DNA of 64,000 nucleotides from Actinomycetes bacterium (GTDB taxonomy: Bacteria; Actinomycetota; Acidimicrobiia; Spongiisociales; JAHEDJ01): positions 167,136 through 231,135 of the forward strand of contig JAHEDK010000002.1 in assembly GCA_024641245.1 (NCBI GenBank), read 5' to 3'. Position 1 is the first letter of the stretch, and the number at the start of each line of letters is the position of its first letter. The notes beneath the pieces are model-generated. The model saw only the letters and a program-made list of their open reading frames with translations. It did no database searches and was not told the origin of the DNA. Shown here in pieces: positions 7,475-64,000 of this stretch. Position numbers and translations under genes: made by a program.

Positions 7475-7526
7475 TCGTTCTTGCGTCAGAGCCAGGCGCC
7501 ACGCGCCCAGAATTGACGCAAGAACG
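7469..7526. repeat. palindromic repeat element, copy A (arms TTCTTGCGTCA / TGACGCAAGAA, 25-nt GC-rich spacer)
   Basis: 19 nt (cttctcgttcttgcgtcag) are identical to copy D at 52819-52836; same architecture as copies at 51746-51795 and 52755-52871. Confidence 0.55.
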
Positions 7527-7538
7527 GTTAGGCGAGAG

Positions 7539-8456
7539 TCACCGGCCGGCGTCGAGCGGCACCTCCACCTCCGCTACCCCCCTCAGCTGAACCGACGCCA
7601 CCGCTCCCACGATCAGGACCATGCCGGCAATCTGAACAGAGGCCATCTTCTGGGCAAACATCATCCAGGCGGCGACGGCACCGATGACGGGTTCGGCCGT
7701 TGCGATGACGCCGACGAAGCCGGCGGAAGCTCGCCGCAATGCCTGGAGTTCGAGCATGAAGGGAATCGCCGTTCCGATGATGCCCAACCACGCCAACTCG
7801 ACCCAGACCCTCGGCGACAGGTCGGTCGGAAAGGACCACACCGGCTGAATTCCGGCCCACATCAGCGCCGAAATGGCGAACCCGTAGGCCATGATGCCTG
7901 ACGGCGGCATCGTTTGGCCGAGCCTCTCACCGATAATCAGATACGCGGCGAACGTCAGCGCTGCTGCCAACCCGGCCCCGACGCCGATGAGGTCGATGTC
8001 GGACACCCGCCACACCTCGGCAATGAGACCGGTCCCGATCAGCGCCACGTATGCCGCCCACCAGGTCGACCGACGAATGACTCTTCGTTCAACCCATCTC
8101 ATCCACAACAACACAACGATCGGCGCCAGGAACTGAAGTGTCATACCGGGCCCCACGCCGATGCGGTCGACCGCCTCGTAGTAAGCCGCGTTCACCGCCG
8201 TGAGACTCGCCCCGAACAGAAGCAACAGGGTCCACGAGGCTCGTGCATCCAGCTTTCCCCGAAACCACGCGTACGGCAGCAGTACGACAACGGCCACCAT
8301 CGCCCTCGACTGGGCTGCCCTCGCCGCGCTGATTTCGACGAGGGCGTCGCTGGCGATCGCACCGCTCACGCCGAAGAGCAGCGCGGCGGTAAACGCGTAC
8401 GCAAAGGCCGAACCTCGGATGTTTGTCTCGTGCACAGGGCTATCCTGCCCCGCCAT
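7539..8456 (-). CDS. EamA/DMT family transporter
   Basis: 10-TM profile with two EamA-like halves. Confidence 0.75.
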   Translation of the reverse strand: MAGQDSPVHETNIRGSAFAYAFTAALLFGVSGAIASDALVEISAARAAQSRAMVAVVVLLPYAWFRGKLDARASWTLLLLFGASLTAVNAAYYEAVDRIGVGPGMTLQFLAPIVVLLWMRWVERRVIRRSTWWAAYVALIGTGLIAEVWRVSDIDLIGVGAGLAAALTFAAYLIIGERLGQTMPPSGIMAYGFAISALMWAGIQPVWSFPTDLSPRVWVELAWLGIIGTAIPFMLELQALRRASAGFVGVIATAEPVIGAVAAWMMFAQKMASVQIAGMVLIVGAVASVQLRGVAEVEVPLDAGR

Positions 8457-8931
8457 GACCGATCAGACCACTTGGCTCACTCCTGCTGCACACAAGAAAC
8501 TCCAGGAGGAGTTCGAATCCCTCACCACCGAGGGCCGCATACACATCGAAGAACGCATCGCGGAAGCCCGCTCGCACGGCGACATCCGAGAGAATGCCGA
8601 CTACGACGCGGCGAAGAACGAACAGGGGATGATGGAAGCGCGGATTCGGCAACTGCGCCACCTGCTCGACACGGCCGAGATCCGTGAAGCCGAGGACAGT
8701 GGCGTTGTGCAGGTCGGCACGATCGTCACGGTCGTCGATTCAGATGGCAGTTCGACGGAGTATTTCGTCGCGCCGACCGAGAATCGAATCCCCGGGTTTC
8801 TGCTCGCCTCACCAACCGGACCGCTCGGAAGCGCTCTACTCGGTGCCGCGATCGGCGACCAGGTCAGCTATAAGGCCCCCGGCGGAACCTTCACCGTCAC
8901 AGTGGAAGCCGTTCGACCGTTCGAAAATTGA
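8455..8931 (+). CDS. greA: transcription elongation factor GreA
   Basis: Internal ATG of ORF 8200..8931 gives a 158-aa product: N-terminal coiled coil (IAEARSHGDIRENADYDAAKNEQ) and C-terminal FKBP-like domain. Confidence 0.85.
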   Translation: MTDQTTWLTPAAHKKLQEEFESLTTEGRIHIEERIAEARSHGDIRENADYDAAKNEQGMMEARIRQLRHLLDTAEIREAEDSGVVQVGTIVTVVDSDGSSTEYFVAPTENRIPGFLLASPTGPLGSALLGAAIGDQVSYKAPGGTFTVTVEAVRPFEN

Positions 8932-34101: not shown

Positions 34102-34584
34102 GTGGCAGGAATGAGCCGTCGGACTTTCTTGAGTCGCGCCACCGCGTCGATTGTCGGCGGGATCGGCGCGCTGATGGGCATCCCCACGGTTGCCTATCTC
34201 ATTTCTCCTGCCAAGGCTCGCGGTGGTCTTGGAGTCGAGGCGATCCCGCTCGGGCCTACCAACAAAGTGCCAATCGGGGAACCCACCCTCTTCAAAGCAA
34301 CCATCGAGCGCAAGACCGGATGGGTCACGCAGGCCGAAGAGCTCGCCTTCTACGTCTTCACAGAAGACGGGCGCAACTTCACGGCACTGTCCAACGTTTG
34401 CACGCACCTTGGCTGCCGGGTGCGGTGGGTCGGCAACGAGAAACAGTTCTTCTGCCCTTGCCACAATGCCGTCTTCACCGAAACCGGGAAAGTGGTTTCG
34501 GGCCCACCGCCCAGAGCCCTAGACCAGTACGAGCTGTCGGTTGAAGGTGACCAGTTGTTCGTCGTCGGGAAGGTCGAAGCATGA
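34102..34584 (+). CDS. Rieske [2Fe-2S] iron-sulfur subunit of cytochrome bc/b6f-type complex (set 1), Tat-exported
   Basis: Twin-arginine signal (SRRTFLS); Rieske boxes CTHLGC and CPCHNAVF. Confidence 0.9.
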   Translation: MAGMSRRTFLSRATASIVGGIGALMGIPTVAYLISPAKARGGLGVEAIPLGPTNKVPIGEPTLFKATIERKTGWVTQAEELAFYVFTEDGRNFTALSNVCTHLGCRVRWVGNEKQFFCPCHNAVFTETGKVVSGPPPRALDQYELSVEGDQLFVVGKVEA

Positions 34585-35270
34585 TCCAGAAGCTCAGTGC
34601 TTGGTTCGAAGAGCGGATGGGATGGAAGCCGATCTGGACGGCACTGGCGCTCCGCAACATCCCCAAGGTCAACTGGCTGTACACGCTGGGCAGCGCCACG
34701 CTCCTCGTCACAGTGAACCAGATTCTGACCGGCATCCTCCTCACCATCTACTACGTCCCCAGCCCTCAGGATGCCTACAACAGCGTTGCCTTCATAACGA
34801 ACGAGATCACTGCCGGCTGGCTCATCAGAGGGCTGCATCATTGGGGTGCCAGTGCGATGGTCGTCCTGGCCGGACTCCACATGCTGCGGGTGGTCTTCCA
34901 CGGCGCCTATAAGTTCCCCCGCGAAATCACCTGGTTCACCGGACTCGGCCTCCTGGCCGTGACGATGGCCTTCGGATTCACCGGGTACTTGCTGCCGTGG
35001 GATCAGAAGGCTTACTGGGCTACCACGGTGGGTACCCGAATGCTGGAGGTGACACCCGTCATCGGTGATTGGCTGCTCCGGATCGCCCGCGGTGGGGAAG
35101 AGCTGTCGGCCGTGACGCTCACCCGGTTCTACGGAACCCATGTATGGGTGCTCCCGTCGGTGCTCCTGCTACTCCTGGGTATCCACCTCTTTCTGGTCGT
35201 CCGCGTCGGCATCAGCGCACCTCCGACACCCAAGGAGACAGACGAGAAGCCCAAAGTGTGGTTCGAATAA
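34581..35270 (+). CDS. cytochrome b6-like subunit (N-terminal half of cytochrome b), set 1
   Basis: Four TM helices with haem-ligand His pairs (GLHHWGASAMVVLAGLHMLRVVFHG; THVWVLPSVLLLLLGIHLF); ATGA overlap with Rieske gene. Confidence 0.9.
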   Translation: MIQKLSAWFEERMGWKPIWTALALRNIPKVNWLYTLGSATLLVTVNQILTGILLTIYYVPSPQDAYNSVAFITNEITAGWLIRGLHHWGASAMVVLAGLHMLRVVFHGAYKFPREITWFTGLGLLAVTMAFGFTGYLLPWDQKAYWATTVGTRMLEVTPVIGDWLLRIARGGEELSAVTLTRFYGTHVWVLPSVLLLLLGIHLFLVVRVGISAPPTPKETDEKPKVWFE

Positions 35271-37669
35271 TGAAACGCGAAGAACGCTCCAAATACCTCG
35301 AGGAGTACGCAGAGGACAAGAAGAAGGGCATCCCGTTCTTCCCGGACGCCGTGTTCAAGGACGTCCTGGTTGCATTGATCGTGTTGATCATTCTCATCGG
35401 CCTCGCCTACTTCGCAGGCGCCCCGCTCGAAGAACGTGCGAATCCATCCGACAGCGACTACACACCTCGACCGGAGTGGTACTTCCTCTGGCTCTTCCAA
35501 CTGCTCAAGTACTTTCCGGGCAACCTCGAGTTCGTCGGCGTCATCCTCCTGCCTGCCCTCGGATTCGCCATCCTCTTCGCCATGCCGTACCTGGACAGGA
35601 CCAAGCTCCGTCACTTCCGCAACCGCAGTTGGGTGATGGCATCAACCGGCGTCGCCGTGGTAGCCATGGGGTTTCTCACAGTCCAATCCATCAGGGAGAC
35701 CCCGGCGCCGGCCGACGTGAGCGGCACCATCAACGCCGCCGTTCTCTTCACCGAGAATTGCTCCGTATGCCACGGCACATCGATCGATGTCCCGACCGGG
35801 ATAAACCTGCATGAGACGATTGCCGGGGGTCACGAGGGGATGCCGGCCTTCGCAGCCACTCTGTCGACCGATGAAATCGATGCCCTCGCAGGATTCCTGG
35901 TCTCTCCGCAGGGAGGGGCGATATTCACCGCCAACTGCGCGGCATGCCACGATTCGAGTGACCTCGCCGCCGCCACCCCGTTCCAGCTCCAGGACGCCCT
36001 GAATCAAGGCACCGCCTACGCGCCGCATGATGGACTCGACATACCCGACTGGTCCGAGGTCCTCTTCGGCCAGGATCGAACCGCGCTCCTCAACTTCTTG
36101 CTTGCTCCGGACGGCCAGCGCCTCTACACGCTCTACTGCTCCGAATGTCACGGAACCTCGATCAGCTGGGAAGGGGAACGAGACGAACTCGAAGCGCTCA
36201 TCCGCCAGGGCGGCAACCACCTCGAGATGACCCAGTGGAGGGACGTGCTGCCGGAGGACCAGATCACCGAACTCGCTCTGTTCGTCGTCGAACCATCCAC
36301 GGCTCCCGGGGGCGAGCAACTGTTTGCACAGCACTGCTCGAGTTGTCACGGCGTGCGGGTGCCGAGCGCTCCCGACATAGAAACCGCCTACAACATCATC
36401 GCCGACGGTGCAGAGCACCGATCGATGCCTGTCTGGGGCGACGTTCTCACCGAGGAGCAGCTAACCGCACTCACAACCTACACGCTCGAAGCCAGTCGCG
36501 GCACACCGGTCATCGTCGGCCAGCAACTGTTCGGTCAATTGTGCTCGTCGTGCCACGGTGACTTCGGTGAAGGCGGCCCGAACCCCGCCGACCCCATCAG
36601 AATCATCCCTCCGATCAGTACGGCGAGCTATTTGGAGACCCGGGACGACGCCACGTTGCGCGCCATCATCTCAAAGGGTCAGTCGGACCAGGGCATGTCG
36701 CCTTTCCTGGAGAGCGAAGGTGGACCGCTGACCGAGGACGAGGTGAATGCCGTGGTTGCGTTCCTCCGTTCGTGGGAATCGGATCCGCCGGTCGATTTGC
36801 CGCCCGATCTTGCCCGTGGACCCGTCGCGGGTGGAAGCGTGCAGGTGTATGCGGCGTTCTGCGCCCAATGCCACGGAGCAGATGGGGCAGGCGGCCCCGA
36901 TTTGGTCGGTCCTTCCTTGACCTCGGCAGAATTCCAGGATTCCTTCACCGATGAGCAACTGCACGAGGCCATCGACCTCGGCCATGCTGCTACTTCGATG
37001 ATCGCCTGGGGCGAGGTCCTCACCGCCGATCAGATCCAGGGACTCGTCGACCACATCCGCTCGCTGGGCGGACGCGGTACCCTGCAGACGATCGTCTACG
37101 AACGCGACATTGCTCCGATCTTCCAGGCGTCTTGCGCCGGTTGCCACGGGTCGTCGGGGGGTTGGGATGCATCCACCATGGAGTCCGTGATCGGCAGCGG
37201 AAGCAGCGGGCCGGCCGTCGTCGCCGGCGATCCCGACGGGAGTCATCTCGTGCAGCGCCTTCGTGGCGAGGGCAACTTGATGCCCCCGGCCGGAGCGCTG
37301 CCGGACAACCAACTCGATCTGATCGTGCAATGGATTGCCGGGGGAGCAACCGCCGAAGTGACAACAGGCGACGCGCAATCCGGCGGCGGCGACATCGGTG
37401 ATTACACGTGGACGAAGGATGTCCAGCCGATCCTGCAGGCCAGTTGCGCGGCCTGCCACGGATCGTCCGGGGGTTGGTACGCGGGGACGTACAGCTCCAC
37501 GATCAACAGCGGCGACAGCGGTCCGGCCGTCGTCCCTGGGAATGCCGACGACAGTTCGATGATCCAACGACTGCTCGGCAACGGCAACCTGATGCCGCCG
37601 GGAGCTCCGCTTTCGGAAGAACAGATCGCCGTCCTGATCTACTGGGTCAACAGCGGCGCCAAGGAATAG
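35270..37669 (+). CDS. cytochrome b subunit IV (PEWY-containing) fused to an octahaem c-type cytochrome domain
   Basis: N-terminal 150 aa = subunit IV (TPRPEWYFLWLF; 3 TM). Then eight CxxCH motifs (CSVCH, CAACH, CSECH, CSSCH, CSSCH, CAQCH, CAGCH, CAACH); the last two sit in repeated CxxCHGSSGGW...GNLMPP modules. Start overlaps the upstream stop (TAATG). Confidence 0.85.
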   Translation: MKREERSKYLEEYAEDKKKGIPFFPDAVFKDVLVALIVLIILIGLAYFAGAPLEERANPSDSDYTPRPEWYFLWLFQLLKYFPGNLEFVGVILLPALGFAILFAMPYLDRTKLRHFRNRSWVMASTGVAVVAMGFLTVQSIRETPAPADVSGTINAAVLFTENCSVCHGTSIDVPTGINLHETIAGGHEGMPAFAATLSTDEIDALAGFLVSPQGGAIFTANCAACHDSSDLAAATPFQLQDALNQGTAYAPHDGLDIPDWSEVLFGQDRTALLNFLLAPDGQRLYTLYCSECHGTSISWEGERDELEALIRQGGNHLEMTQWRDVLPEDQITELALFVVEPSTAPGGEQLFAQHCSSCHGVRVPSAPDIETAYNIIADGAEHRSMPVWGDVLTEEQLTALTTYTLEASRGTPVIVGQQLFGQLCSSCHGDFGEGGPNPADPIRIIPPISTASYLETRDDATLRAIISKGQSDQGMSPFLESEGGPLTEDEVNAVVAFLRSWESDPPVDLPPDLARGPVAGGSVQVYAAFCAQCHGADGAGGPDLVGPSLTSAEFQDSFTDEQLHEAIDLGHAATSMIAWGEVLTADQIQGLVDHIRSLGGRGTLQTIVYERDIAPIFQASCAGCHGSSGGWDASTMESVIGSGSSGPAVVAGDPDGSHLVQRLRGEGNLMPPAGALPDNQLDLIVQWIAGGATAEVTTGDAQSGGGDIGDYTWTKDVQPILQASCAACHGSSGGWYAGTYSSTINSGDSGPAVVPGNADDSSMIQRLLGNGNLMPPGAPLSEEQIAVLIYWVNSGAKE

Positions 37670-37811
37670 TCAATACGAAGCACTCAACACGAGGTGCGGC
37701 GTTCGGCCCGTCGCGATTCGACACTCCGTCGGGTCGGGTTGCTACTCTCCACCGCACCCCGGCGCCGAGCCGGGAGTCGTACAGTAGGGTGTCGACGACG
37801 GAGCATCTGGT

Positions 37812-39608
37812 ATGGAGAAACTTCACTTCTTCGACGAGAACATCCCCTGTCTCGCCGCCTGTCCGGTCAACACGAATGCCGGCATGTACGTTGCCGCCAT
37901 CGCAGACGGACAGGATGAACTGGCCTATCTAACCGCTCGCCTCCCCAACCCGTTCGCCTCCGTCTGCGGTCGGGTTTGTGCGGCGCCATGCGAGGACGCC
38001 TGTCGGCGCGGCGAAATCGACAAGCCCATCGCCATCCGGGCGCTCAAGCGATTCGTCACCGATCAATTCGGCGTCGAATCCGGCATGGATACCTACCGGC
38101 AGGTCGCCGCCCCTGCTCTCGAGTCGCGATCACAAAGCGTCGGGATTGTCGGAGGGGGCCCGGCCGGCCTGGCCGCCGCCCACGACCTCCGCCGCCTCGG
38201 CTACGGCGTCACGCTGTACGAAGCCACCGGTCAGCTCGGCGGCATGATGCTGCTGGGGATCCCCGAGTACCGCCTTGATCGATCCCTCCTGGCGGCGGAG
38301 ATCAAGGCCATCACCGACCTGGGCGTCGAGGTTCGGTTGAACACGAAACTCGGCGATGGCATCACGCTCGATGACCTCCGCCGGCAGCACGATGCCCTAT
38401 TCGTGGCCATCGGGGCGACCCTCGGACGCGGACTCGACCTCGAAGGCCACGACGCAGACGGGGTGTTGAAGGCGATCGAGTACCTGATCAACGCCAACCA
38501 GGGGTTCGCAACCGACGTCGGTCAGAAGGTGGTCGTAATCGGTGGCGGCGACGTGGCGATGGATGCAGCAAGGACCGCGCTACGAGCTGCAACCTACGAT
38601 GAGATCGCCCGCCGCCATGCCGAATACGACGAAGAGGACGGGCGCTCATCCATGACGGAAGCCCTCGACGTGGCTCGCACGGCTGCCCGGACTGGTGCTC
38701 AGGACATAACCATCATGTCACTCGAGGCCAAACACGAGATGCCGGCGTCGGAGTTCGAGGTCGAAGAGGCCGAGCACGAGGACATCAAGTTTGTCAACCG
38801 GCGCGGTCCCGCCCGGATACTCACCGCCGATGGCAAGGTCACCGGCATCGAGACGATCGGGGTCACGCGCGTTTTCGACGAGAACGGCCGGTTCTCCCCT
38901 GAATTCGACGATGCAGATCGGCTGACGCTGGAGGCAGACACCATCATCATGGCTATCGGCCAGGCGATCGATGTTGAGGCACTGGGAGCGAACGGCCCTG
39001 AGTTGAGTCCTCGCAAGACAATCCAAGTGGGTGAGGACAGCCTGGCGACTTCGCTTCCGATGGTATGGGCCGGCGGCGATGCAGCCAGGGGCCCGCGCAC
39101 TCTCATCGATGCGATCGCAGACGGCCGGATTGCGGCCCGTGAGATCCACGAGGCGTTTGGCGGCAGCTTCGCCGAGCAGGATACCGGAACCATGGTGCAA
39201 CTGGACCAGTTCCACCGTCTCGACGACATCTACGACCGGGTCCCCCGGGTCGCCGTGCCCACGCTGCCGACGGACCGGCGCATCGGTCTGGCAGAAGTCG
39301 AAACAGGGTTCACCGTCGAAGAGGCCAGGTGTGAGGCACAGAGGTGTCTGCGCTGCTTCGCCAACATCCTGCTCGATACCGACATTTGTGTTTTATGCGC
39401 GCTGTGCGCCGACGTCTGCCCGCTCGACCTGATTTCGCTGGTTCCCTCGGAGGACATTCACCCAGACGAGCCGGGTGGCACGGCGTTAATGTTGAACGAG
39501 CAAAGCTGCATCCGTTGCGCGCTGTGTATTGAGCGATGCCCGACAGATGCACTGTCGATGGGACTGTGGACCGGAGTGGGAGTGCCGAAATTGGGAGCAC
39601 CGGTATGA
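37812..39608 (+). CDS. GltD-like FAD/NAD(P)H-dependent oxidoreductase with N-terminal Fe-S domain and C-terminal 2x[4Fe-4S] ferredoxin domain
   Basis: N-terminal Cys cluster (CLAACPV...CGRVCAAPCEDAC), FAD motif GIVGGGPAGLAAA, NAD(P) motif VVVIGGGDVAMDAA, C-terminal CLRCF...CVLCALCADVCP and CIRCALCIERCP. Confidence 0.85.
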   Translation: MEKLHFFDENIPCLAACPVNTNAGMYVAAIADGQDELAYLTARLPNPFASVCGRVCAAPCEDACRRGEIDKPIAIRALKRFVTDQFGVESGMDTYRQVAAPALESRSQSVGIVGGGPAGLAAAHDLRRLGYGVTLYEATGQLGGMMLLGIPEYRLDRSLLAAEIKAITDLGVEVRLNTKLGDGITLDDLRRQHDALFVAIGATLGRGLDLEGHDADGVLKAIEYLINANQGFATDVGQKVVVIGGGDVAMDAARTALRAATYDEIARRHAEYDEEDGRSSMTEALDVARTAARTGAQDITIMSLEAKHEMPASEFEVEEAEHEDIKFVNRRGPARILTADGKVTGIETIGVTRVFDENGRFSPEFDDADRLTLEADTIIMAIGQAIDVEALGANGPELSPRKTIQVGEDSLATSLPMVWAGGDAARGPRTLIDAIADGRIAAREIHEAFGGSFAEQDTGTMVQLDQFHRLDDIYDRVPRVAVPTLPTDRRIGLAEVETGFTVEEARCEAQRCLRCFANILLDTDICVLCALCADVCPLDLISLVPSEDIHPDEPGGTALMLNEQSCIRCALCIERCPTDALSMGLWTGVGVPKLGAPV

Positions 39609-40342
39609 CATTGGGCCAACGAATCCGCGAAAGCACGATAGGTCGTTCGATCTGGCGCGCCACCGACCGAACCACCGAACGCGACCAGGCGGCCGGTCAC
39701 TGGGCGAACTTCTTTCTGCACATCTACCCGGTGAAAGTGCGCAAGAAGGAGATCACGTTCCGCTATTCCTGGTATCTAGGTGTGGCGTCGGTGGTCCTGT
39801 TCGGATCGCTGATCGTTTCGGGCATCTACCTGATGTTCTTCTACGTCCCGTCGCCTGCCCAGGCCTACGGCGACATCCTCAACCTGCAAACGCGGGTCGC
39901 GTTCGGACAGTACATCCGCAACGTGCACCGCTGGTCGGCTCACCTCATGGTGCTGGTGGTGGCCGCGCACATGGCCCGGGTGTTTTATCGAGGGGCATAC
40001 AAGAAACCCCGCGAATTCAACTGGGGTATCGGCGTGATCCTCCTCGTGCTCACGCTGCTCCTTTCGTTCACCGGCTACCTGCTCCCCTGGGACCAGCTCG
40101 CCTACTGGGCGGTCACGGTCGGCACCGAGATGGCCGCCTTCGTCCCGCTGATCGGGGACACCGTCAAGGAAATGATGCTGGGTGGGCCGGTGGTTGCTTC
40201 GTCGACGCTGCTGCGGTTCTACGTTCTGCATGTCGCCGTTCTGCCCACGGCTGTCGTTCTCCTCATCACAATCCATATGTGGAGATGGCGCAAAGACAGC
40301 ATGCTCGACGCGGCGAAGGAGGGTGTTGATGTCGACGCCTAG
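39605..40342 (+). CDS. cytochrome b6-like subunit, set 2
   Basis: His pairs (NVHRWSAHLMVLVVAAHMARVFYRG; FYVLHVAVLPTAVVLLITIHMW); ATGA overlap with upstream gene. Confidence 0.9.
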   Translation: MTLGQRIRESTIGRSIWRATDRTTERDQAAGHWANFFLHIYPVKVRKKEITFRYSWYLGVASVVLFGSLIVSGIYLMFFYVPSPAQAYGDILNLQTRVAFGQYIRNVHRWSAHLMVLVVAAHMARVFYRGAYKKPREFNWGIGVILLVLTLLLSFTGYLLPWDQLAYWAVTVGTEMAAFVPLIGDTVKEMMLGGPVVASSTLLRFYVLHVAVLPTAVVLLITIHMWRWRKDSMLDAAKEGVDVDA

Positions 40343-40865
40343 ACCAGATCAGGAAAATCCTGAGATCGTCGCCGGACAACGGGTGCTCGGGGTTGTTCCA
40401 GGCAAGCCGCCGGGCGGCGACCGCAAGGTTCTGAGCGAGCAGGAACCGGTCATGGTCTGGCCGCACCTACTCGTCCGCCACGGGGTGGCGGCGCTGGTGG
40501 TCATCGCCGTCGTTCTGGTGCTTGCCATATTCTTCGATGCCCCGCTGCGTGAGATCGCCAACCCCACGCTGACGCCCAACCCGGAAAAGGCCCCCTGGTA
40601 TTTCGCGGCGCTCCAGGAGCTGCTCTCGATGTTCCATCCGCTGGTGGCCGGTGTGCTGGTCCCGGGCGCCATCGTCCTCGGGCTCTTCGCGCTTCCGTAT
40701 GTGGATCGGACTTCGACGATCGAGCCGCGGTTCCGCAAGGTGGCGGTGGCGACGTTCACGATCTTCATGGTCGTGTGGATAGTCCTGACGGTTATCGGAT
40801 TCGCCTTCCGCGGCCCCAACTGGGGTTGGGTGTGGCCATGGCAAGAGTGGTACGGAGAGCTATGA
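40329..40865 (+). CDS. cytochrome b subunit IV-like protein, set 2 (Qo-site motif variant APWY)
   Basis: Three TM helices; NPEKAPWYFAALQELL in place of the canonical PEWY; coupled start (overlaps upstream stop). Confidence 0.8.
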   Translation: MSTPRPDQENPEIVAGQRVLGVVPGKPPGGDRKVLSEQEPVMVWPHLLVRHGVAALVVIAVVLVLAIFFDAPLREIANPTLTPNPEKAPWYFAALQELLSMFHPLVAGVLVPGAIVLGLFALPYVDRTSTIEPRFRKVAVATFTIFMVVWIVLTVIGFAFRGPNWGWVWPWQEWYGEL

Positions 40866-41368
40866 GCAACGGAATCGGTCGGAGAGAATTCCTATCCCGG
40901 GCCTGGAAGTGGGGTGCCGCCCTCATCGGTGTCGCCGGCGGTTGGACCACGTGGGATATCCTGCAGCCCCGGGTCACCGGAGGCTTTGGTGGCGTCATCA
41001 AGACCAAGGCAGCCGACACAGTGCCGGACACCAACGTCGAATCCATCCGGGCCGCCAGAACCTACCTGACGAAGATCGACGGGCAGGTTGTAGCCCTCTC
41101 CGAGAAATGCCCGCACCTCGGTTGCCGGGTGCCGTGGTGTGATTCGTCCGGACAGTTCGAGTGCCCGTGCCACGGCTCGGTCTTCAACCGGGCGGGCGAG
41201 TACCGCGCAGGGCCCGCTCCCCGCGGAATGGACCGCTACGAGTTCGAGACGATCGACGGCATCGTCTACGTAGACACCGGAGCACCGGTATCCGGGCCGG
41301 CAATCGGTGTGGAGACCCTCAACGAACCCGTACGAGGGCCATCGTGTGAGGACAGCTCCCATGGGTGA
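40862..41368 (+). CDS. Rieske [2Fe-2S] iron-sulfur subunit, set 2, Tat-exported
   Basis: RREFLSR twin-arginine signal; CPHLGC and CPCHGSVF boxes; ATGA overlap. Confidence 0.9.
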   Translation: MSNGIGRREFLSRAWKWGAALIGVAGGWTTWDILQPRVTGGFGGVIKTKAADTVPDTNVESIRAARTYLTKIDGQVVALSEKCPHLGCRVPWCDSSGQFECPCHGSVFNRAGEYRAGPAPRGMDRYEFETIDGIVYVDTGAPVSGPAIGVETLNEPVRGPSCEDSSHG

Positions 41369-41825
41369 GCGTCCGGTTGACCAGGAACTCGAACAGTCGA
41401 CCGTCAGATGGATGCAGGCCGGACTGGCCCTGATGGTCGTCCTGGTGCTGGCGTTTCCCGCCTACCGGCTCCTCGAACCTACCAACCGCGAAGAAGCACG
41501 CGACCTCTTGACGGAAGAACTCGCCGTCCAGGGCGAAGAGCTATTCGCGGGGCAGTGCGCCTCCTGTCACGGCGAAAAGGGGCTGAATGGACCGATCGGT
41601 CCGTCGCTCAACTCGAAGCAGTTCCTGGAGGCGGCCACCGACAGCCAGATCATCAGCCTCGTCTCGGTCGGCGTCCCGGGCTCTCAGATGGGCGCCTACT
41701 CGATCGACTTCGGAGGCCCACTGACACTCGAGCAAATCACCGGCATCGCAACCTATCTGCGCTCGCTGGAGAAAGACGCCCCGGACAATCCTGACTGGCG
41801 AGCAGTAGTAACGCCGGGGAGCTAG
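41361..41825 (+). CDS. membrane-anchored monohaem class I cytochrome c
   Basis: N-terminal TM helix; single CASCHG haem motif with downstream Met ligand region; start overlaps Rieske stop. Confidence 0.75.
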   Translation: MGERPVDQELEQSTVRWMQAGLALMVVLVLAFPAYRLLEPTNREEARDLLTEELAVQGEELFAGQCASCHGEKGLNGPIGPSLNSKQFLEAATDSQIISLVSVGVPGSQMGAYSIDFGGPLTLEQITGIATYLRSLEKDAPDNPDWRAVVTPGS

Positions 41826-51796: not shown

Positions 51797-52720
51797 TCAA
51801 GCAGCCTGGTGGATCGCGGCCAGGACTTCCGCAACAACGGAATCCGGCCGGCCAATCAGGTCCCACCAGGTGTATCGAAGCGTTCTCCAGCCGAGTAGCT
51901 CTGTCTGGTTCTGGATCACGCGGTCTCTGCGAAACGTGGGGCGATCCATGTGAAACGCTTCGGAGTCGAGTTCGATCCGCAGGCGGTGCTCGATGAAGGC
52001 GAAGTCGGCCCGGCATACGAACGTCCCGTCAGGGTTTCTGATCTCCACCTGTGGCGTCGGTTGCGGCGTACGGAGCCCCCACGACCGGCGAAACAGATCT
52101 TCCAGTTCGCTCTCGGTGACGCCATCCCAGTGGAGCCGCTGCTCGACGAACGGCCGTATGACCCCGACTCCCCTGCGGCCGCGCCTGGCGACCCGGCCGA
52201 CCAGCGCGGCAACACCTTCGAGCGTAAAGCTCCGAGTTCTCAGACCTCTATCGAGAGCCGACTCGACCAGCCACGGCGCGCTGGCGCCCAGATCGACGAC
52301 CGTTCGGACCGGAGTGGTCACCGGGATACCCGAGACCTCCGCCGAGTCCTCGGGAGCGAGATCGGTCGACTCGTGAACGACGAACTCCTGATGCGCCCGA
52401 TTCCAGCGGGGCATCACTACCTCGATGCGCGGAGGCTTGCGATCAACCAGGCCGTGCAGGAATGCAGCGGTCTGGTGGGAGGCCAGCGCCAGATCGCCTG
52501 CGGTCGTGGTCGCGATGAGCACGGCCTGATGCCAGTCGCGCGGCACGGCGGGGAAAACGTACGTGCGGTAGGCCACCCGCTCGAGCACTCCGCGGGACGT
52601 CAAACCTTTCAACTGATCTGAGCTGAGCCCTGCCTCAATGACAGCAGCACGATCGACTACGCCGTGTCGCAAGGCGGCCCTCTGAGTGAGAATCTGCAAC
52701 GGTGTCATGCCCAACACCAT
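51797..52720 (-). CDS. DUF559 endonuclease-domain protein (AbiEi-like N-terminal HTH + Vsr/RE-like fold)
   Basis: C-terminal DUF559 motifs (VEIRNPDGTFVCRADFAFIEHRLRIELDSEAFH) of the widely amplified actinobacterial family; start set at MVLGMT. Confidence 0.7.
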   Translation of the reverse strand: MVLGMTPLQILTQRAALRHGVVDRAAVIEAGLSSDQLKGLTSRGVLERVAYRTYVFPAVPRDWHQAVLIATTTAGDLALASHQTAAFLHGLVDRKPPRIEVVMPRWNRAHQEFVVHESTDLAPEDSAEVSGIPVTTPVRTVVDLGASAPWLVESALDRGLRTRSFTLEGVAALVGRVARRGRRGVGVIRPFVEQRLHWDGVTESELEDLFRRSWGLRTPQPTPQVEIRNPDGTFVCRADFAFIEHRLRIELDSEAFHMDRPTFRRDRVIQNQTELLGWRTLRYTWWDLIGRPDSVVAEVLAAIHQAA

Positions 52721-52754
52721 CAAGGTTGGGTGTGACAAATCCCGAACCCAGTGA

Positions 52755-52871
52755 ACTTGCGTCAGAAACGGGCGCCGGCCGCCCCAAACTGACGCAAGAA
52801 AGGGATAGGGGCGCCACCTTCTCGTTCTTGCGTCAGTGTTCCGAGCAACGGGCCCAGAAGTGACGCAAGAA
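52755..52871. repeat. palindromic repeat element, tandem copies C and D
   Basis: acttgcgtcag...ctgacgcaagaa (52755-52800) and ttcttgcgtcag...gtgacgcaagaa (52825-52871), each with a 23-nt GC-rich spacer. Confidence 0.55.
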
Positions 52872-52939
52872 TGAGGAGAGACAGAGAAGTGGGGAGCCTT
52901 TCGGCTCCCCACTTCGGGTGTTCGTTAAGCGACTCTTGT

Positions 52940-55860: not shown

Positions 55861-55936
55861 GATTGGGCCACATGGGAGAGAGGCGAGGGCCCGCAATGGT
55901 TTGTGAATGCCGTGAGTGGTCGAGAGGGGGCCCACG

Positions 55937-56362
55937 GTGTTGATCACCCGCGAGGTCGACTACGCCGTGCGCTGTGTTCTCGACGTAGCCCGCACCGGGC
56001 ACACCTCCACCGGAGCAGTCGCCGAACGGGCCGGGATACCCCCATCGATCCTCGGGCGCATCGTGGCGGCTGTATCGAAAGCCGGCATACTCACTACCAG
56101 ACGAGGAGTCAAAGGCGGCATCGATCTTGCGCGCGATCCAAGCGAGATCAGCCTGCTTGACGTCATAGAGGCGGTGCAAGGTCCGCTCTTCGTCAACATC
56201 TGCTGCGAGCATCCCGAAACCTGTGACGCCGCTACCAACTGTCCGATCCGACCCGTCTGCGAGGACGCCTTCGACGAGCTGAGACGGGTCTTCTCGGTGA
56301 CCTACGACACATTGCTCAACGGCGGCCACGTTCCTCTCCGCCCGTTCGTCCAAGAGGAGTAG
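55937..56362 (+). CDS. Rrf2 family transcriptional regulator (IscR/NsrR-like, three-Cys cluster)
   Basis: N-terminal wHTH (TREVDYAVRCVLDVA...STGAVAERAGIPPSILGRIV) and Cys cluster CCEHPETC...C...C; GTG start after GAGAGGGGG. Confidence 0.8.
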   Translation: MLITREVDYAVRCVLDVARTGHTSTGAVAERAGIPPSILGRIVAAVSKAGILTTRRGVKGGIDLARDPSEISLLDVIEAVQGPLFVNICCEHPETCDAATNCPIRPVCEDAFDELRRVFSVTYDTLLNGGHVPLRPFVQEE

Positions 56363-56423: not shown

Positions 56424-57296
56424 ATGAAGCGACGAACCCAGCTTTACGCGCTCGGCGGACTCCTCATTGTTGTTTCGTTTGCCGCCTGGCGGTTGACGGA
56501 CGATCCGGCAATCGAACCACCGCTGATCCCGATCGCAGCAACCGCCGTGGTCGCAGACTCCGACTTCGACGCGTGCCTCGAGTGCCACGACGACATCGAG
56601 CAATCCCTCCAAGCCGGACTGGTGCAACTCATCGGATTTCGACACGAAGAGCACTTCTCGAATTCCGGCGACGTCGGTTGCGGCAACTGCCACGGTCTCG
56701 ACACGCACGATCGCACCCCGCCGCAGGCACCGACCATGGAGGATTGTTTTTCGTGCCACCTCGACGCCGGGCCGGCTGCCGAGTTGCCGTGTCTCCGCTG
56801 TCACGACAACGCCACTGTGCCACCGCCGCAGAGCCACTTCACCTCAGAGTGGCGCGACGTTCACGGCTCCGGCGCCCTGCTCAGCCAGTCGCTGTGCGAG
56901 ACCTGCCACTCGCGACAAGATTTCTGCACGGCGTGCCACGGTGTCGATATTCCGCATCCAGACGGATGGACCGGCTATCCACACGCACGTGCGACGTTCG
57001 ATTCGGGCATCGAGTCGTGTGCACGCTGCCACGAGCGCGGTCCGGAACTGACGGCTCGCGACGAATGTGACGGCTGCCACCATCCGCAGAACCCCGCAGA
57101 ACCCATCTGGAAGGATGCTCACCCAGAGGTGGTCCGAAGCCAGGGTGGCTCGACGTGCTTCGAGTGCCACGACCCCAACACATGCGCCACATGTCACACA
57201 TCGGGAGTTGAAGACTTCTCCGCCGATCTCAACCGGCTCGAAGTGCCCGGCCCACCAAAGGTCACGGAGTCACCGCCCGAGGACGGTGACTCGTGA
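56424..57296 (+). CDS. membrane-anchored decahaem c-type cytochrome
   Basis: N-terminal TM; ten CxxCH motifs (CLECH, CGNCH, CFSCH, CLRCH, CETCH, CTACH, CARCH, CDGCH, CFECH, CATCH). Confidence 0.85.
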   Translation: MKRRTQLYALGGLLIVVSFAAWRLTDDPAIEPPLIPIAATAVVADSDFDACLECHDDIEQSLQAGLVQLIGFRHEEHFSNSGDVGCGNCHGLDTHDRTPPQAPTMEDCFSCHLDAGPAAELPCLRCHDNATVPPPQSHFTSEWRDVHGSGALLSQSLCETCHSRQDFCTACHGVDIPHPDGWTGYPHARATFDSGIESCARCHERGPELTARDECDGCHHPQNPAEPIWKDAHPEVVRSQGGSTCFECHDPNTCATCHTSGVEDFSADLNRLEVPGPPKVTESPPEDGDS

Positions 57297-58309
57297 GTCT
57301 GTCCCCGGTACCCATCGGACCGGCGGGACGCTCGCCCGGAATCCCATTCCCGGCACCACCGACCGCCCTCCGGCGATTCTCAACGCAACCACCGCCACCT
57401 CCCGACGGCGAGCCATCTCGCCGTCCCGAGCTTCGTGCCCTCGGTGACGGGGCGGGCTCGGGAAGGGACAACAGGGCATCGGAGCCACGCGGGTCTCGCT
57501 GGCTTCGGCGCCTCGTCATCATCGTCGCGACCGTCGGCGCCCTCGTATTCGTCGCCTCCTGGAGCTACGCCTCGTCATCGCGCAACATGTGCGGAAGCTG
57601 TCATAGCGTCTCGGCGGCTGCAGAATCCGCCGGTGATTCGGTGCACGCAGATATCCCGTGCCTCGCCTGCCACAGGCAAGCGGGCATCGTCGGAGCGTTC
57701 ACCTACCTCCCTGTGCTGCTGCGCGAGTCTGTTCACGAGCTGACTGGACTCTCTATCGCCGAAGGAGTGCTCGACCCCGTCGGATGTGGTTCTTGTCACT
57801 CTTTCCTATCCGACGCGGCGGCGCGAGGCGATCATCCGGACGAGACAGCAGAATGCTCGTCCTGCCACGGCAACGTAGCCCACCCGGGAGCCGGGACGGC
57901 TCCGGAAGGGGACGGCCATCCGTCCGGGTTCTTCGCTTTCCACGGCCGGGATTCCGTCGCTTCGCCCGGATCATGCGCAGAATGCCATAAGAACGACTTC
58001 TGCTCGGCCTGCCACTTCCGCACGGAGTATCCGCATCCGGAAACCTGGACGTCGCTCCATGGTCCGGCGTCAATCGAAGGCGGCCCCGCTGCTTGTGTGA
58101 TGTGCCACGAGCCCACGTACTGTTCGAGCTGTCACGGCGCCGACATCCCCCATCCGGACAACTGGTTCGAGATCCATCATCGGGCAACCGACCCGGCAGT
58201 CGGGTCGGCCTGCCTATCGTGCCATGCAGCCTCCGAGTGCTCCTCCTGCCACGTCCGGCACTCAGTTCACAACGAGCAAGGGCTCTACCAGTGGGACCTC
58301 AAGCCATGA
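57293..58309 (+). CDS. membrane-anchored decahaem c-type cytochrome with NapC/NirT/NrfH-like N-terminus
   Basis: Pro-rich cytoplasmic tail, single TM then CGSCHS immediately after it (NapC/NrfH-like topology); ten CxxCH in total; start overlaps upstream stop. Confidence 0.8.
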   Translation: MSLSPVPIGPAGRSPGIPFPAPPTALRRFSTQPPPPPDGEPSRRPELRALGDGAGSGRDNRASEPRGSRWLRRLVIIVATVGALVFVASWSYASSSRNMCGSCHSVSAAAESAGDSVHADIPCLACHRQAGIVGAFTYLPVLLRESVHELTGLSIAEGVLDPVGCGSCHSFLSDAAARGDHPDETAECSSCHGNVAHPGAGTAPEGDGHPSGFFAFHGRDSVASPGSCAECHKNDFCSACHFRTEYPHPETWTSLHGPASIEGGPAACVMCHEPTYCSSCHGADIPHPDNWFEIHHRATDPAVGSACLSCHAASECSSCHVRHSVHNEQGLYQWDLKP

Positions 58310-59157
58310 AAGGCATCCGGGTGCTCATGACTGTGGTCCTCACTCTCGTACTCGCTGAGGTGACGCTCGTGGCCTTCGTGACCTTCTCCGAGGATGCCCG
58401 GGGCGCGGTCACCGACGCGTGGGCCAAGACCGTGAACGCGTGGGCCGGCTCGGAGGAGCGGGCAGGCAATTTCGAGCTGCTCCTGTCGTCTGCAGACGAG
58501 TTCGCTGCTGAATGGGTCCAGCCATTGTGGAGCGCGCCGGAGGCGGCTCCGGCCGGCACCGGATTCTCCGAATGCGTGACCTGCCACACGGATTACGCCG
58601 AACGTCGCCTGTTCACCGGCGTCTTCATGAATCATCCACTGCATTCGGAGTTGGGAATCGCGTGCGCCGAATGCCACACCGACGTTGCGCATCCCCTCCC
58701 TCTCCCTCCGGCCGAAGAGACTTGTGCAGGGTGCCACAATCAAGTCGAACGAGACGGCCCGGCCTCCGACTGTAGCTATTGCCACAAACCTGGCTCGCTG
58801 GCGCACTATCAGTCACTTGGCGTTCCCGACGGAGCCGCCAACTGCAGCACCTGCCACCTTCCGGATTCGTTCGGGCACACCGATCAGCACGCCTTGACGG
58901 TTACTCCAAGCTTCGATGGAACCGATTCCGCCGTCTGCCTCAACTGCCATCAGGCGGCCGCCTGCGCTCGATGCCATGATTCCTCCCACCCGGCCGACTG
59001 GGTATCCCTTCACGGCGCAGAGGTCCAGGACGCCGGTACCGGCGCCGGCTCCTGCGCGGCGTGTCATTCGACAAACTGGTGCGCTGGAGCCTGCCACCTG
59101 AGTGGAACTCTCCAGGGCGGCAGGCTGCTCCCCCTACCGATCGGAGACGATGACTGA
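58306..59157 (+). CDS. membrane-anchored multihaem c-type cytochrome (8 CxxCH + 1 CxxxCH)
   Basis: N-terminal TM; CVTCH, CAECH, CAGCH, CSYCH, CSTCH, CLNCH, CARCH, CAACH plus WCAGACH (CX3CH); ATGA-type overlap with upstream gene. Confidence 0.8.
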   Translation: MKGIRVLMTVVLTLVLAEVTLVAFVTFSEDARGAVTDAWAKTVNAWAGSEERAGNFELLLSSADEFAAEWVQPLWSAPEAAPAGTGFSECVTCHTDYAERRLFTGVFMNHPLHSELGIACAECHTDVAHPLPLPPAEETCAGCHNQVERDGPASDCSYCHKPGSLAHYQSLGVPDGAANCSTCHLPDSFGHTDQHALTVTPSFDGTDSAVCLNCHQAAACARCHDSSHPADWVSLHGAEVQDAGTGAGSCAACHSTNWCAGACHLSGTLQGGRLLPLPIGDDD

Positions 59158-61799: not shown

Positions 61800-62909
61800 A
61801 TGCGCACCAAGCTGCAAGGGTTCGCTCTGTGGGGGATGCTGTTCTTTGCCGTCGTCGGACTCACGGCCCTGTCGGCCGACCCGGCCTCAGCGCAGGATTC
61901 CGCCGACTCGGAAGTCAACAACTACTGCCTGGGATGCCACGAATCCGGGAACATCATTCTCACGTTCCCGTCGGGGGAGATGCTTCCCGCCGTGGTGCCG
62001 CGTACCGTTTTCGACGCCTCTATCCACGGTCAGGTCGGCCTCACCTGCATCGCCTGTCATACCGATATCGGGCAGTACCCACACGACCCCATGTCGGCCG
62101 TCACCCGGCGAGACCTGGCGATCGAGTTGTACACCACGTGCTTCAACTGCCACGAGAGCGAATACACCGACACGCTCGACAACATGCACACCGAAGCTCT
62201 CGCCGGCGGCAACCGGGAAGCCGCCGTCTGCACCGACTGCCACGGCGCTCACAACGTCACCCACCCCAGCGTCGACACAACGGCCATCCCGCGCACCTGC
62301 CGGAACTGCCACTCCGAGATCTACGACCTGTACGCCGGCAGCATCCACGGTGCCGCCCTACTCGAACACGACAATCAGGACGTTCCAAGCTGCACGAGTT
62401 GTCACGGCGTCCACAGTGTTGAAGGACCCTCGCACTCGCAATTCCACCTGTTCTCACCGAAAATCTGCGAGGACTGCCACGCCGATGAAGCTCTCATGGG
62501 CAAGTACGGGATCAGCACGGCGGTCTTCGACACCTACGTAGCCGATTTCCACGGCACGACGGTCATGCTCTTCGAGGAACTGGCGCCCGACCAGAAGACC
62601 AACTCGCCGGTCTGTATCGACTGCCACGGCGTGCACAACATCCTGGCCGCCAACGAGGTCGACTCGACCGTCTACAAGGAGAACCTGCTCCTCACCTGTC
62701 AGCGGTGCCACCCAGACGCCACCGCCAACTTCCCCGACTCGTGGATGAAGCACTACCAACCGACCTCCGACCAGGCGGTCCTTGTCTGGCTGGTCAATTG
62801 GTTCTACCGACTCGTCATCCCCGGCGTCGTGGGGGGCATGCTCGTCTGGGTGACGATCGACGGCATTCGCCACTTGCAGCATCGACGGAAGGCGGCCGAG
62901 AGTGTCTGA
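61800..62909 (+). CDS. nonahaem c-type cytochrome with signal peptide and C-terminal TM anchor
   Basis: Nine CxxCH motifs (CLGCH, CIACH, CFNCH, CTDCH, CRNCH, CTSCH, CEDCH, CIDCH, CQRCH); C-terminal hydrophobic helix VIPGVVGGMLVWVTI. Confidence 0.85.
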   Translation: MRTKLQGFALWGMLFFAVVGLTALSADPASAQDSADSEVNNYCLGCHESGNIILTFPSGEMLPAVVPRTVFDASIHGQVGLTCIACHTDIGQYPHDPMSAVTRRDLAIELYTTCFNCHESEYTDTLDNMHTEALAGGNREAAVCTDCHGAHNVTHPSVDTTAIPRTCRNCHSEIYDLYAGSIHGAALLEHDNQDVPSCTSCHGVHSVEGPSHSQFHLFSPKICEDCHADEALMGKYGISTAVFDTYVADFHGTTVMLFEELAPDQKTNSPVCIDCHGVHNILAANEVDSTVYKENLLLTCQRCHPDATANFPDSWMKHYQPTSDQAVLVWLVNWFYRLVIPGVVGGMLVWVTIDGIRHLQHRRKAAESV

Positions 62910-64000
62910 CGTCCTTGAGCGCGCAGCAGTCGACGTCGAACTGGACGATCGGATACTGCGTTTTGGAAAGGCGGATCGCATCGAGCATGCGGTCCAGGTA
63001 ATCAGCTTCGCCGGCCTCGGCCTCACTGGGCTGATCCAGAAGTTCTTCGAGTCGGCGATTTCTCAGTGGTGGATTGAGTTCCTTGGTGGGTTGCCACAGG
63101 TGCGCGTCATTCATCGCTGGCTGGCGACCATCCTCATGCTCGCCGTCATCTGGCACTTCGGTAAAGCCGGATATCGCACGTACGTCGAACGGCGACCGCG
63201 AGCCATGGTCCCGAGCAAGCGCGACTGGATTGCCATCAAGGAATCGATCGCGGTGCTGGCGGGACGGCGTCACGAACCTGTGAAACAAGGTCGATTCACG
63301 TTCGCGGAGAAGGTCGAGTACTGGTCGTTCGTCTGGGGCACCGTCTTGATGATCGCCACCGGCTATATGCTGTGGAACCCGATTTCCACCGCCAAGTTCC
63401 TCCCCGGTGATTTCATCCCGGCCGCCAAAGCGGCACACGGTGGAGAAGCGATCCTGGCTGTGCTGGCCATCCTCGTCTGGCACATCTACCACGTGCACAT
63501 CAAGCATTTCAACAAGAGCATCTTCACCGGCTACATCAGCCGGGCAGAGATGATCGAAGAACATGGCCTCGAACTCGAGGCGATGGAGGCGGGCAAGACC
63601 GGTCCGCAGGCGACACAAGCCGAGATTGTGGAGCGGCGGCGCAAGTTCCTTCCCGCCTTCGGTGTTGTGGCGGTCCTCATGATGGCCGGCATCTACTGGT
63701 TCGTGAGCTTCGAGGATACGTCGATCGCCACCATCGAGCCCATCGAAAACGTGGTGGCATACAAGCCACTGCCTCCTGAACAGCAGAGCGGCCCGGCGCT
63801 TTCTGGTGACAATCCGCTCCCGACCATCGTCATCCCCGACACCACCCTCCCCACCGAGACGACGGTGCCGCAGGGTGAAGTCACATGGGCCACGGTTGGG
63901 CCCGTTCTGGCCGATAGCTGCGGTACGTGCCATTCGGCCTCGAACTCCATGGGCGGGCTCGACCTTTCGTCGTACGAGGGGGCGCTGGGTTCCGAGGGAG
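62902..64000 (+). CDS. FdnI/HydC-type dihaem cytochrome b membrane subunit with C-terminal c-type haem (CGTCHS) extension; 3' end outside window
   Basis: Absent from the ORF track because the frame runs off the window; GTG start overlaps the upstream stop. Four TM helices with conserved His (RIEHAVQVISFAGLGLTGL; HRWLATILMLAVIWH; YWSFVWGTVLMIATGY; AAHGGEAILAVLAILVWHIYHVH), then Pro/Thr linker and CGTCHSASNSMGGLDLSSY. Confidence 0.7.
   Translation, partial: MSDVLERAAVDVELDDRILRFGKADRIEHAVQVISFAGLGLTGLIQKFFESAISQWWIEFLGGLPQVRVIHRWLATILMLAVIWHFGKAGYRTYVERRPRAMVPSKRDWIAIKESIAVLAGRRHEPVKQGRFTFAEKVEYWSFVWGTVLMIATGYMLWNPISTAKFLPGDFIPAAKAAHGGEAILAVLAILVWHIYHVHIKHFNKSIFTGYISRAEMIEEHGLELEAMEAGKTGPQATQAEIVERRRKFLPAFGVVAVLMMAGIYWFVSFEDTSIATIEPIENVVAYKPLPPEQQSGPALSGDNPLPTIVIPDTTLPTETTVPQGEVTWATVGPVLADSCGTCHSASNSMGGLDLSSYEGALGSEG

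Follow-up and report, generated by a model that had tools for sequence, protein, structure and literature searches.

The 64,000-nt stretch analyzed here (contig JAHEDK010000002.1 of GenBank assembly GCA_024641245.1, from a genome of the Acidimicrobiia; hereafter the window) ends with two overlapping genes, the first encoding a nonahaem cytochrome c (gene 1) and the second a dihaem cytochrome b (gene 2). The homology of both domains identifies the two products as subunits of a bc cytochrome of the type of Geobacter CbcL (GSU0274), in agreement with the original prediction, made from the DNA letters, that the CbcL domain pair appears here as two coupled genes. We consider it probable that the pair is a CbcL-type membrane menaquinol:multihaem-cytochrome c oxidoreductase feeding the cytochrome island of the window. 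The split pair is a variant of the known CbcL system and not a new system; what is new is the phyla, the prevalence and the PSCyt1 extension of the b subunit. In the literature that we searched, itself incomplete, we found no description of the module in Acidimicrobiia or Anaerolineae, or of the PSCyt1 extension.

Both halves of the gene pair align with CbcL

As comparator we used a 614-residue CbcL orthologue of Desulfuromonas thiophila, rebuilt from its genome locus (L005) across an assembly frameshift. The locus was reached from fragments of G. sulfurreducens CbcL machine-read from the supplement of PMC9129911; a search with these returned short C-terminal fragments only, one of which led to L005. 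The comparator is 62-86% identical to the machine-read fragments, with matching residue numbers. BLASTP results showed that the nonahaem protein is 29.6% identical to D. thiophila CbcL over 274 residues (43-311 versus 32-266, from haem 1 to haem 9; E 1.3e-29) and the cytochrome b 26% identical over 265 residues (20-268 versus 342-603, fifth helix included; E 1.3e-17), the gene pair and CbcL being collinear. The kinship with the CbcL family that the original prediction had assumed was therefore significant for both halves when aligned with this orthologue. The D. thiophila gene itself (L005 4697-6540) is broken near FLFIRKDI in a long-read assembly, probably by a sequencing error.

We also aligned with MAFFT the window pair, four proteins in which the two domains are fused, and D. 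thiophila CbcL. All nine CxxCH motifs and their distal histidines fell in common columns, and the b-haem motifs RF..H, HR and H..EA..A..H as well as the loop ..EK.EY/F also shared columns with CbcL and the fused proteins. The C-terminal anchor helix of gene 1 aligned with the first membrane helix of the fused CbcL forms and helix five of gene 2 with the final CbcL helix, and the break between the subunits falls in the cytoplasmic loop after the equivalent of the first CbcL helix. A profile of the c-domain family scored 568 bits for fused proteins of Anaerolineae, 235-331 for other fused proteins, 115 for CbcL and 18 for CbcA; for the b-domain family the corresponding scores were 425, 152-227 and 103, with 53.5 for FdnI and 17 for CbcB.

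Like CbcL and the CbcL/MtoC/MtrH family in general, the pair has in this order a c domain of nine bis-His haems, a single helix and a five-helix dihaem b domain of the FdnI type, with six membrane helices in total (one from gene 1 and five from gene 2 in AlphaFold2 (AF2) models) and without iron-sulfur, flavin or molybdopterin partners; CbcL has been called unique as a b cytochrome joined to a multihaem c cytochrome without other cofactors (bioRxiv 10.1101/2022.08.31.506072). The differences are that Geobacter has one polypeptide whereas two are found here (77 of 77 loci), that the c domain is about 45 residues longer, that the b subunit in this clade bears one to five extra c-haem motifs past its last helix (two PSCyt1 domains in the window pair), and that the hosts are Acidimicrobiia and Chloroflexota. 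A 2018 survey of fused CbcL homologues listed none in Actinobacteria or Chloroflexi (PMC6295460).

We also considered CbcBA (GSU0593-0594), a low-potential quinol oxidase that is likewise made of two genes, for a dihaem b protein and a multihaem c protein with a C-terminal helix. A CbcBA-like comparator was available about 4 kb downstream of D. thiophila cbcL (L005 10392-12073), where a σ54-type response regulator is followed by a seven-haem cytochrome with a C-terminal helix and then a 213-aa PF01292 cytochrome b, in the order CbcA then CbcB. The CbcBA reading was rejected, as the b subunits had no detectable similarity (E 1.0 against the CbcB-like protein; 17 bits by profile) and the c subunits were similar only weakly and over partial length (42 bits by BLASTP, 18 by profile). 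Moreover, CbcA has seven haems and not nine, the gene order in G. sulfurreducens is opposite, the σ54 regulation of CbcBA was not seen here, and CbcB is a four-helix protein that takes its fourth haem ligand from CbcA whereas the b subunit here contains all four candidate ligands. The lack of similarity to CbcBA fits Joshi et al., who state that no sequence homology exists between CbcL and CbcBA (bioRxiv 10.1101/2021.04.15.440034).

A nine-haem wire and a dihaem cytochrome b with haem c domains

The product of gene 1 contains the nine CxxCH motifs (at residues 43, 83, 114, 144, 167, 198, 223, 272 and 300) and the C-terminal anchor that the original prediction had read in it. Its GC content at third codon positions of 0.84, against 0.63 for the GC content of the whole window, together with homologues at 50-89% identity, indicates a real gene and not a chance open reading frame (ORF). 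Across 121 homologues, nine histidines outside the motifs are invariant (H76, 95, 130, 151, 183, 205, 251, 279 and 318), each haem has an invariant second His, and no CxxCK or open-site signature was found. Nine invariant extra His for nine haems favor a pure electron wire over an enzyme with a catalytic haem; they match the bis-His ligation measured for the CbcL haems (PMC9129911). In the same homologues the anchor helix has the invariant residues V329, F335, Y336, P341 and G345, which suggest a specific packing on the b bundle, as that of the FdnH helix on FdnI.

The GTG start of gene 2 lies within the end of gene 1, as had been proposed, and was also chosen by an independent gene call; a Shine-Dalgarno-like GGAAGG stands about 10 nt ahead of it. 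The overlap of 8 nt (GTGTCTGA) is a translational coupling of the two genes. A scan for promoters and terminators gave nothing above chance. The window cuts gene 2, and the complete product was recovered as an identical 500-aa protein (P0001) in public assemblies.

Gene 2 had been taken for a four-helix FdnI/HydC-type dihaem cytochrome b. The FdnI type held: the product matches PF01292 (E 2e-12), the best named NCBIfam matches are FdnI models, which score 56 and 51 bits, far under their cut-offs of 339 and 116, and the sole significant match among solved folds is E. coli FdnI (1kqf_C; phmmer E 1e-10; Foldseek E 4e-7, template-modelling score 0.77; 24% identity). The helix number changed to five, since the AF2 model of P0001 (mean predicted local distance difference test (pLDDT) 83; AF2 models were built without haems) has a further helix after the four-helix bundle. 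The N-terminus and the loops 96-133 and 202-238 are cytoplasmic, judging from positive-inside loops and the FdnI alignment, and the fifth helix brings the C-terminal haem c domains to the outside, where c-type haem has to be attached.

FdnI alignment and family invariants predict H29/H194 as ligands of the cytoplasmic-side b haem and H71/H179 as those of the outer one, at or beside FdnI His18/57/155/169. The most conserved motif of the gene 2 family, GRFTFxEKxEYW (residues 130-141, GRFTFAEKVEYW), is aligned with the loop lining the menaquinone pocket of FdnI. Formate dehydrogenase-N (Fdn-N; PDB 1kqf) is thus the closest solved fold, with haem ligands and cytoplasmic menaquinone-site loop in alignment and with a partner subunit, FdnH, that likewise gives one C-terminal membrane helix. 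It differs in that the partner here is a multihaem cytochrome and not an iron-sulfur protein, that there is no catalytic subunit, and that a fifth helix and haem c domains on the outside are added to the b subunit.

After the last helix, the Pro/Thr-rich linker and the CGTCH motif before the window end were present as described. The linker is probably disordered in the model. A PSCyt1-like haem c does follow, as expected from the original prediction, which had counted a single one; P0001 has two PSCyt1 domains, the second past the window end (PF07635 in two stretches; score 53.1 bits, cut-off 22), with the motifs CGTCH (residue 340) and CGACH (residue 432).

Features of the gene pair, the neighboring gene in relatives and the b6f-like gene sets (positions in the window unless a locus is named)
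Feature	Position	Strand	Details
Gene 1, nonahaem cytochrome c	61800..62909	+	369 aa; homologous to CbcL periplasmic c domain plus first membrane helix
Sec signal peptide, gene 1 residues 1-31	61800..61892	+	predicted cleavage ASA|Q, after ASA31, read from sequence; AF2 helix 6-24
Gene 1 C-terminal membrane helix, residues ~326-353	62775..62858	+	AF2 helix 327-368, pLDDT 83-97
Gene 1/gene 2 overlap	62902..62909	+	GTG 62902 within gene 1 end; TGA at 62907-62909
Gene 2, FdnI-type dihaem cytochrome b + linker + PSCyt1	62902..64000	+	first 366 of 500 codons; cut by window end
Gene 2 membrane domain	62968..63708	+	AF2 helices 23-47, 64-95, 134-158, 171-201 (four-helix b bundle) and 239-269 (fifth)
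Pro/Thr-rich linker, gene 2 residues 275-322	63724..63867	+	outside membrane; pLDDT <50; composition from sequence
First PSCyt1 monohaem c domain, start	63886..64000	+	CGTCH at 63919-63933; remainder and second PSCyt1 past window end
ImcH-like neighbor gene	L003 12073-13668; L004 11679-13238; L007 6721-8553	-	519-563 aa
b6f-like set 1: cytochrome b6	34581-35270	+	
b6f-like set 1: PetD-like subunit	35069-37669	+	fused into 866-aa protein; eight CxxCH in class I cytochrome c/PSCyt1 domains
GltD/DPD-like FAD/NAD + 4Fe-4S oxidoreductase	37812-39608	+	after b6f-like set 1
b6f-like set 2: cytochrome b6	39536-40342	+	
b6f-like set 2: PetD-like subunit	40182-40865	+	
b6f-like set 2: Rieske protein	40775-41368	+	
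b6f-like set 2: monohaem c	41307-41825	+	

The split form is widespread and conserved

A relative of the b subunit is encoded in at least 517 species-representative genomes, in addition to thousands of metagenome proteins. We surveyed the loci of the best 80 of these genomes, scanned for haem-motif ORFs only; most are labelled Acidimicrobiia/Actinomycetota or Anaerolineae/Chloroflexota, and two are Planctomycetota. In all 77 loci that had the upstream DNA needed to evaluate the arrangement, a stop-closed nonahaem homologue stands directly upstream of the b gene on the same strand, and the next start commonly overlaps it by 4 or 8 nt. A sequencing frameshift as origin of the split was rejected, as a separate stop and start are found in two independent assemblies and in 77/77 loci. 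The PSCyt1 extension is near-universal in the split clade: the number of c-haem motifs after the last b-subunit helix is one in 52 loci, two in 16, three in 6, four in 2 and five in 1.

Fused proteins were sought by an exhaustive nonahaem search followed by a local phmmer search with the b domain. Four have exactly nine CxxCH: P0241/P0391 from Anaerolineae, P0319, P0352 from Ca. Schekmanbacteria, and P0368. The Anaerolineae protein is 51% identical in the c domain and scores 268 bits in the b domain, and these fused proteins bridge the split form and CbcL. In a b-domain neighbor-joining tree rooted on FdnI, the split clade and two fused members form one group (80/100 bootstraps), which is nested among fused forms, with Desulfuromonas CbcL in another fused subclade. 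This suggests that one ancient fission gave rise to the split clade, the tree being crude and only indicative. Other fused relatives (P0247, 780 aa; P0301/P0377, 717 aa; P0313, 1005 aa) have 11 to 22 N-terminal CxxCH, or four extra CxxCH past the last helix, so that the c-haem load is modular at both ends of the b domain.

In Carboxydocella thermautotrophica, a Gram-positive iron reducer, CbcL homologues in two-gene form had been described before, along with an ImcH homologue (PMC6085454). Its "Cbc-like" clusters CFE_2192-2193 and CFE_2225-2226 resemble the window pair in consisting of a dihaem b membrane protein and a one-helix multihaem c protein, a likeness drawn from the description and not from sequence; they differ in phylum (Firmicutes), and no PSCyt1 extension is mentioned for them. 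As cbcB-cbcA fusions in Chloroflexi have also been noted (bioRxiv 10.1101/2021.04.15.440034), fission and fusion of such modules have precedent.

An ImcH-like gene is a frequent neighbor

We then looked at the genes around the pair in relatives. In L003, the relative at 93% identity, gene 2 is followed by a convergent gene for a 531-residue protein, beyond which lie housekeeping and haem-biosynthesis genes; the relative at 50% identity (L004) has the same downstream arrangement, with ccm genes ahead of the pair. L006 (P0096), whose upstream region is broken, was left out of the synteny. The convergent gene encodes a heptahaem protein (one CX3CH and six CxxCH) with three helices at its N-terminus and an NrfH/NapC-like segment. 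These features are the hallmarks of ImcH according to Zhong and Shi (PMC6295460), and on these published hallmarks, rather than on an ImcH sequence, the gene adjoining the b subunit is classed as ImcH-like. By synteny, it is expected just past the window end. A homologue lies within 5 kb of the pair in about 50 of the 80 loci, therefore CbcL-like and ImcH-like genes are often neighbors in these phyla.

In L003, an ISL3-family transposase (7497-8756) is inserted between the NHL-repeat gene and the nonahaem gene, where the gap in the window is only 144 nt. The pair is thus kept together as a unit that is separate from the genes upstream.

Function and direction of electron flow

From the likeness to CbcL and Fdn-N we infer a quinol-oxidase function, a low-potential role and an outward flow of electrons; the steps that follow are modelled on Fdn-N (1kqf) and on the argument made for CbcL (bioRxiv 10.1101/2022.08.31.506072). 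The subunits would be made 1:1 and would assemble via the conserved anchor helix, like FdnH with FdnI. Menaquinol would be oxidized near the cytoplasmic-side b haem, at the loop in the position of the FdnI menaquinone pocket, and its protons released to the cytoplasm. Electrons would traverse the membrane via the b haems H29/H194 and then H71/H179, and leave the outer haem by the nine-haem wire and/or by the PSCyt1 monohaem domains that are tethered outside. Next in line would be the 5- to 11-haem cytochromes of the 48.8-59.2 kb region, and last the extracellular acceptors. Such an outward flow would conserve no proton-motive force, as argued for CbcL, and would suit low-potential acceptors. 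A trait expected of the CbcL/MtoC/MtrH family is to be needed when extracellular acceptors below about -0.1 V are reduced.

Several points weigh against this proposal. Identity to the CbcL of Desulfuromonadia is only 26-30%, and the comparison used the D. thiophila orthologue, repaired by hand across its assembly frameshift, in place of G. sulfurreducens CbcL. The assembly of the subunits and the quinone site are read from alignments. The PSCyt1 domains are not part of CbcL and may send electrons to partners outside the extracellular chain, and the presence of the clade in so many species genomes might point to a respiratory role of a more general kind. The 80 related genomes were all assembled from metagenomes, and their carriers are uncultured. 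Finally, relatives of CbcL (MtoC) also occur in Fe(II) oxidizers (PMC6295460), and the direction of electron flow is thus not fixed by homology.

The reverse direction is unlikely, yet it is the alternative that survives best. In this case the complex would work as a quinone reductase and bring electrons from donors in the periplasm or outside the cell (Fe(II), minerals, cathodes or reduced shuttles) via the c and then the b haems to menaquinone at the cytoplasmic face, and it would generate a proton-motive force from a redox loop, like Fdn-N and as proposed for MtoC. The FdnI fold and its ligand pattern do come from an enzyme working that way, and some Acidimicrobiia oxidize iron. Moreover, members of the CbcL/MtoC/MtrH family occur among Fe(III) reducers as well as Fe(II) oxidizers with no sequence feature to tell them apart (PMC6295460). 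However, the reduction of menaquinone needs a low-potential donor, and Fe(II) at neutral pH is marginal; the ImcH-like gene adjoins the pair in relatives, and the ImcH family has so far been found only in Fe(III) reducers (PMC6295460); and no known iron oxidase such as Cyc2 turned up in the window, no scan having been aimed at Cyc2.

A rather speculative extension, to which we give a low probability, is that the PSCyt1 domains offer electrons a second way out of (or into) the outer b haem, independent of the nine-haem wire. The complex would in this case be a branched, two-port quinol/quinone oxidoreductase, able to alternate between that wire and a monohaem route or, working backwards, to serve as an energy-conserving electron-uptake loop like Fdn-N. 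If this were true, uncultured Acidimicrobiia and Anaerolineae would have in it a main hub of their respiration, and not a simple copy of CbcL.

It is quite improbable that the pair is a general respiratory quinol:cytochrome c oxidoreductase in which the tethered PSCyt1 domains supply terminal oxidases or periplasmic reductases, like the monohaem subunits of alternative complex III or bc complexes. The very wide distribution of the clade, the near-universal PSCyt1 extension and the b6f-like complexes of the window, with their class I cytochrome c domains, would be in line with such a role. On the contrary, most of the 80 loci hold ImcH-like genes and large multihaem cytochromes around the pair, ccm genes accompany it in the window, L004 and L006, and a nine-haem wire would be superfluous if the acceptor were a soluble monohaem protein. 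Oxidase or reductase genes were not seen in the gene-called loci L003, L004 and L006, the 80 genome loci having been scanned for haem-motif ORFs only.

That the cytochrome b anchors a formate dehydrogenase, a hydrogenase or a catalytic multihaem enzyme (HAO- or NrfA-like), with the nonahaem protein as that enzyme or its electron-transfer subunit, is largely refuted and most improbable, given the low FdnI model scores, the nonahaem protein as conserved partner in 77/77 loci, the invariant second His on all nine haems with no open-site signature, and, in L003 and L004, flanks that hold no molybdopterin, iron-sulfur or NiFe subunit genes, the downstream side carrying the convergent ImcH-like gene and housekeeping genes where the original prediction had considered a formate dehydrogenase/hydrogenase operon.

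The CbcL-type quinol oxidase that we favor matters because CbcL is one of three inner-membrane gates that set how Geobacter respires extracellular acceptors. The genomes examined for the split module are mainly Acidimicrobiia and Chloroflexota, and the module is often beside an ImcH-like gene; our results suggest that these abundant phyla, mostly uncultured and usually regarded as single-membrane, commonly have an inner-membrane entry to extracellular electron transfer of the Geobacter type. The two genes also provide annotators with a marker pair that is overlooked by fused-protein searches, and structural work with a natural two-subunit version of the CbcL complex.

Other genes of the window

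Directly upstream of the pair, the window encodes a SurA-like protein, a tetratricopeptide-repeat protein and an NHL-repeat protein. The run of 5- to 11-haem cytochromes of the island lies further upstream, and ccmABC, ccmF, ccmH and a thioredoxin are at 42.5-48.7 kb. Within the island, 57293-58309 (+) encodes a membrane-anchored 10-haem cytochrome with an NrfH/NapC-like start (TIGR03153, E 3e-6), and 58315-59157 (+) a membrane-anchored cytochrome with eight haems plus one CX3CH. Either could be a further quinol dehydrogenase, and the island thus has candidate entry points besides the split CbcL.

Two tandem b6f-like gene sets were also found at 34581-41825 (+). They resemble those Rieske/cytochrome b complexes of anammox bacteria in which an NAD(P) oxidoreductase is a subunit. 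Candidates for other quinone-coupled modules near the island are the NrfH-like cytochrome, these b6f-like complexes (34.6-41.8 kb) and the ImcH-like gene of the relatives.

In addition, an Rrf2-family regulator is encoded inside the cytochrome island (55916-56362, +), with a counterpart at the corresponding place in L003, and the run of cytochrome genes is broken at 51797-52912 (-) by the gene of an AbiEi-antitoxin-like/REase_MTES_1575 protein.

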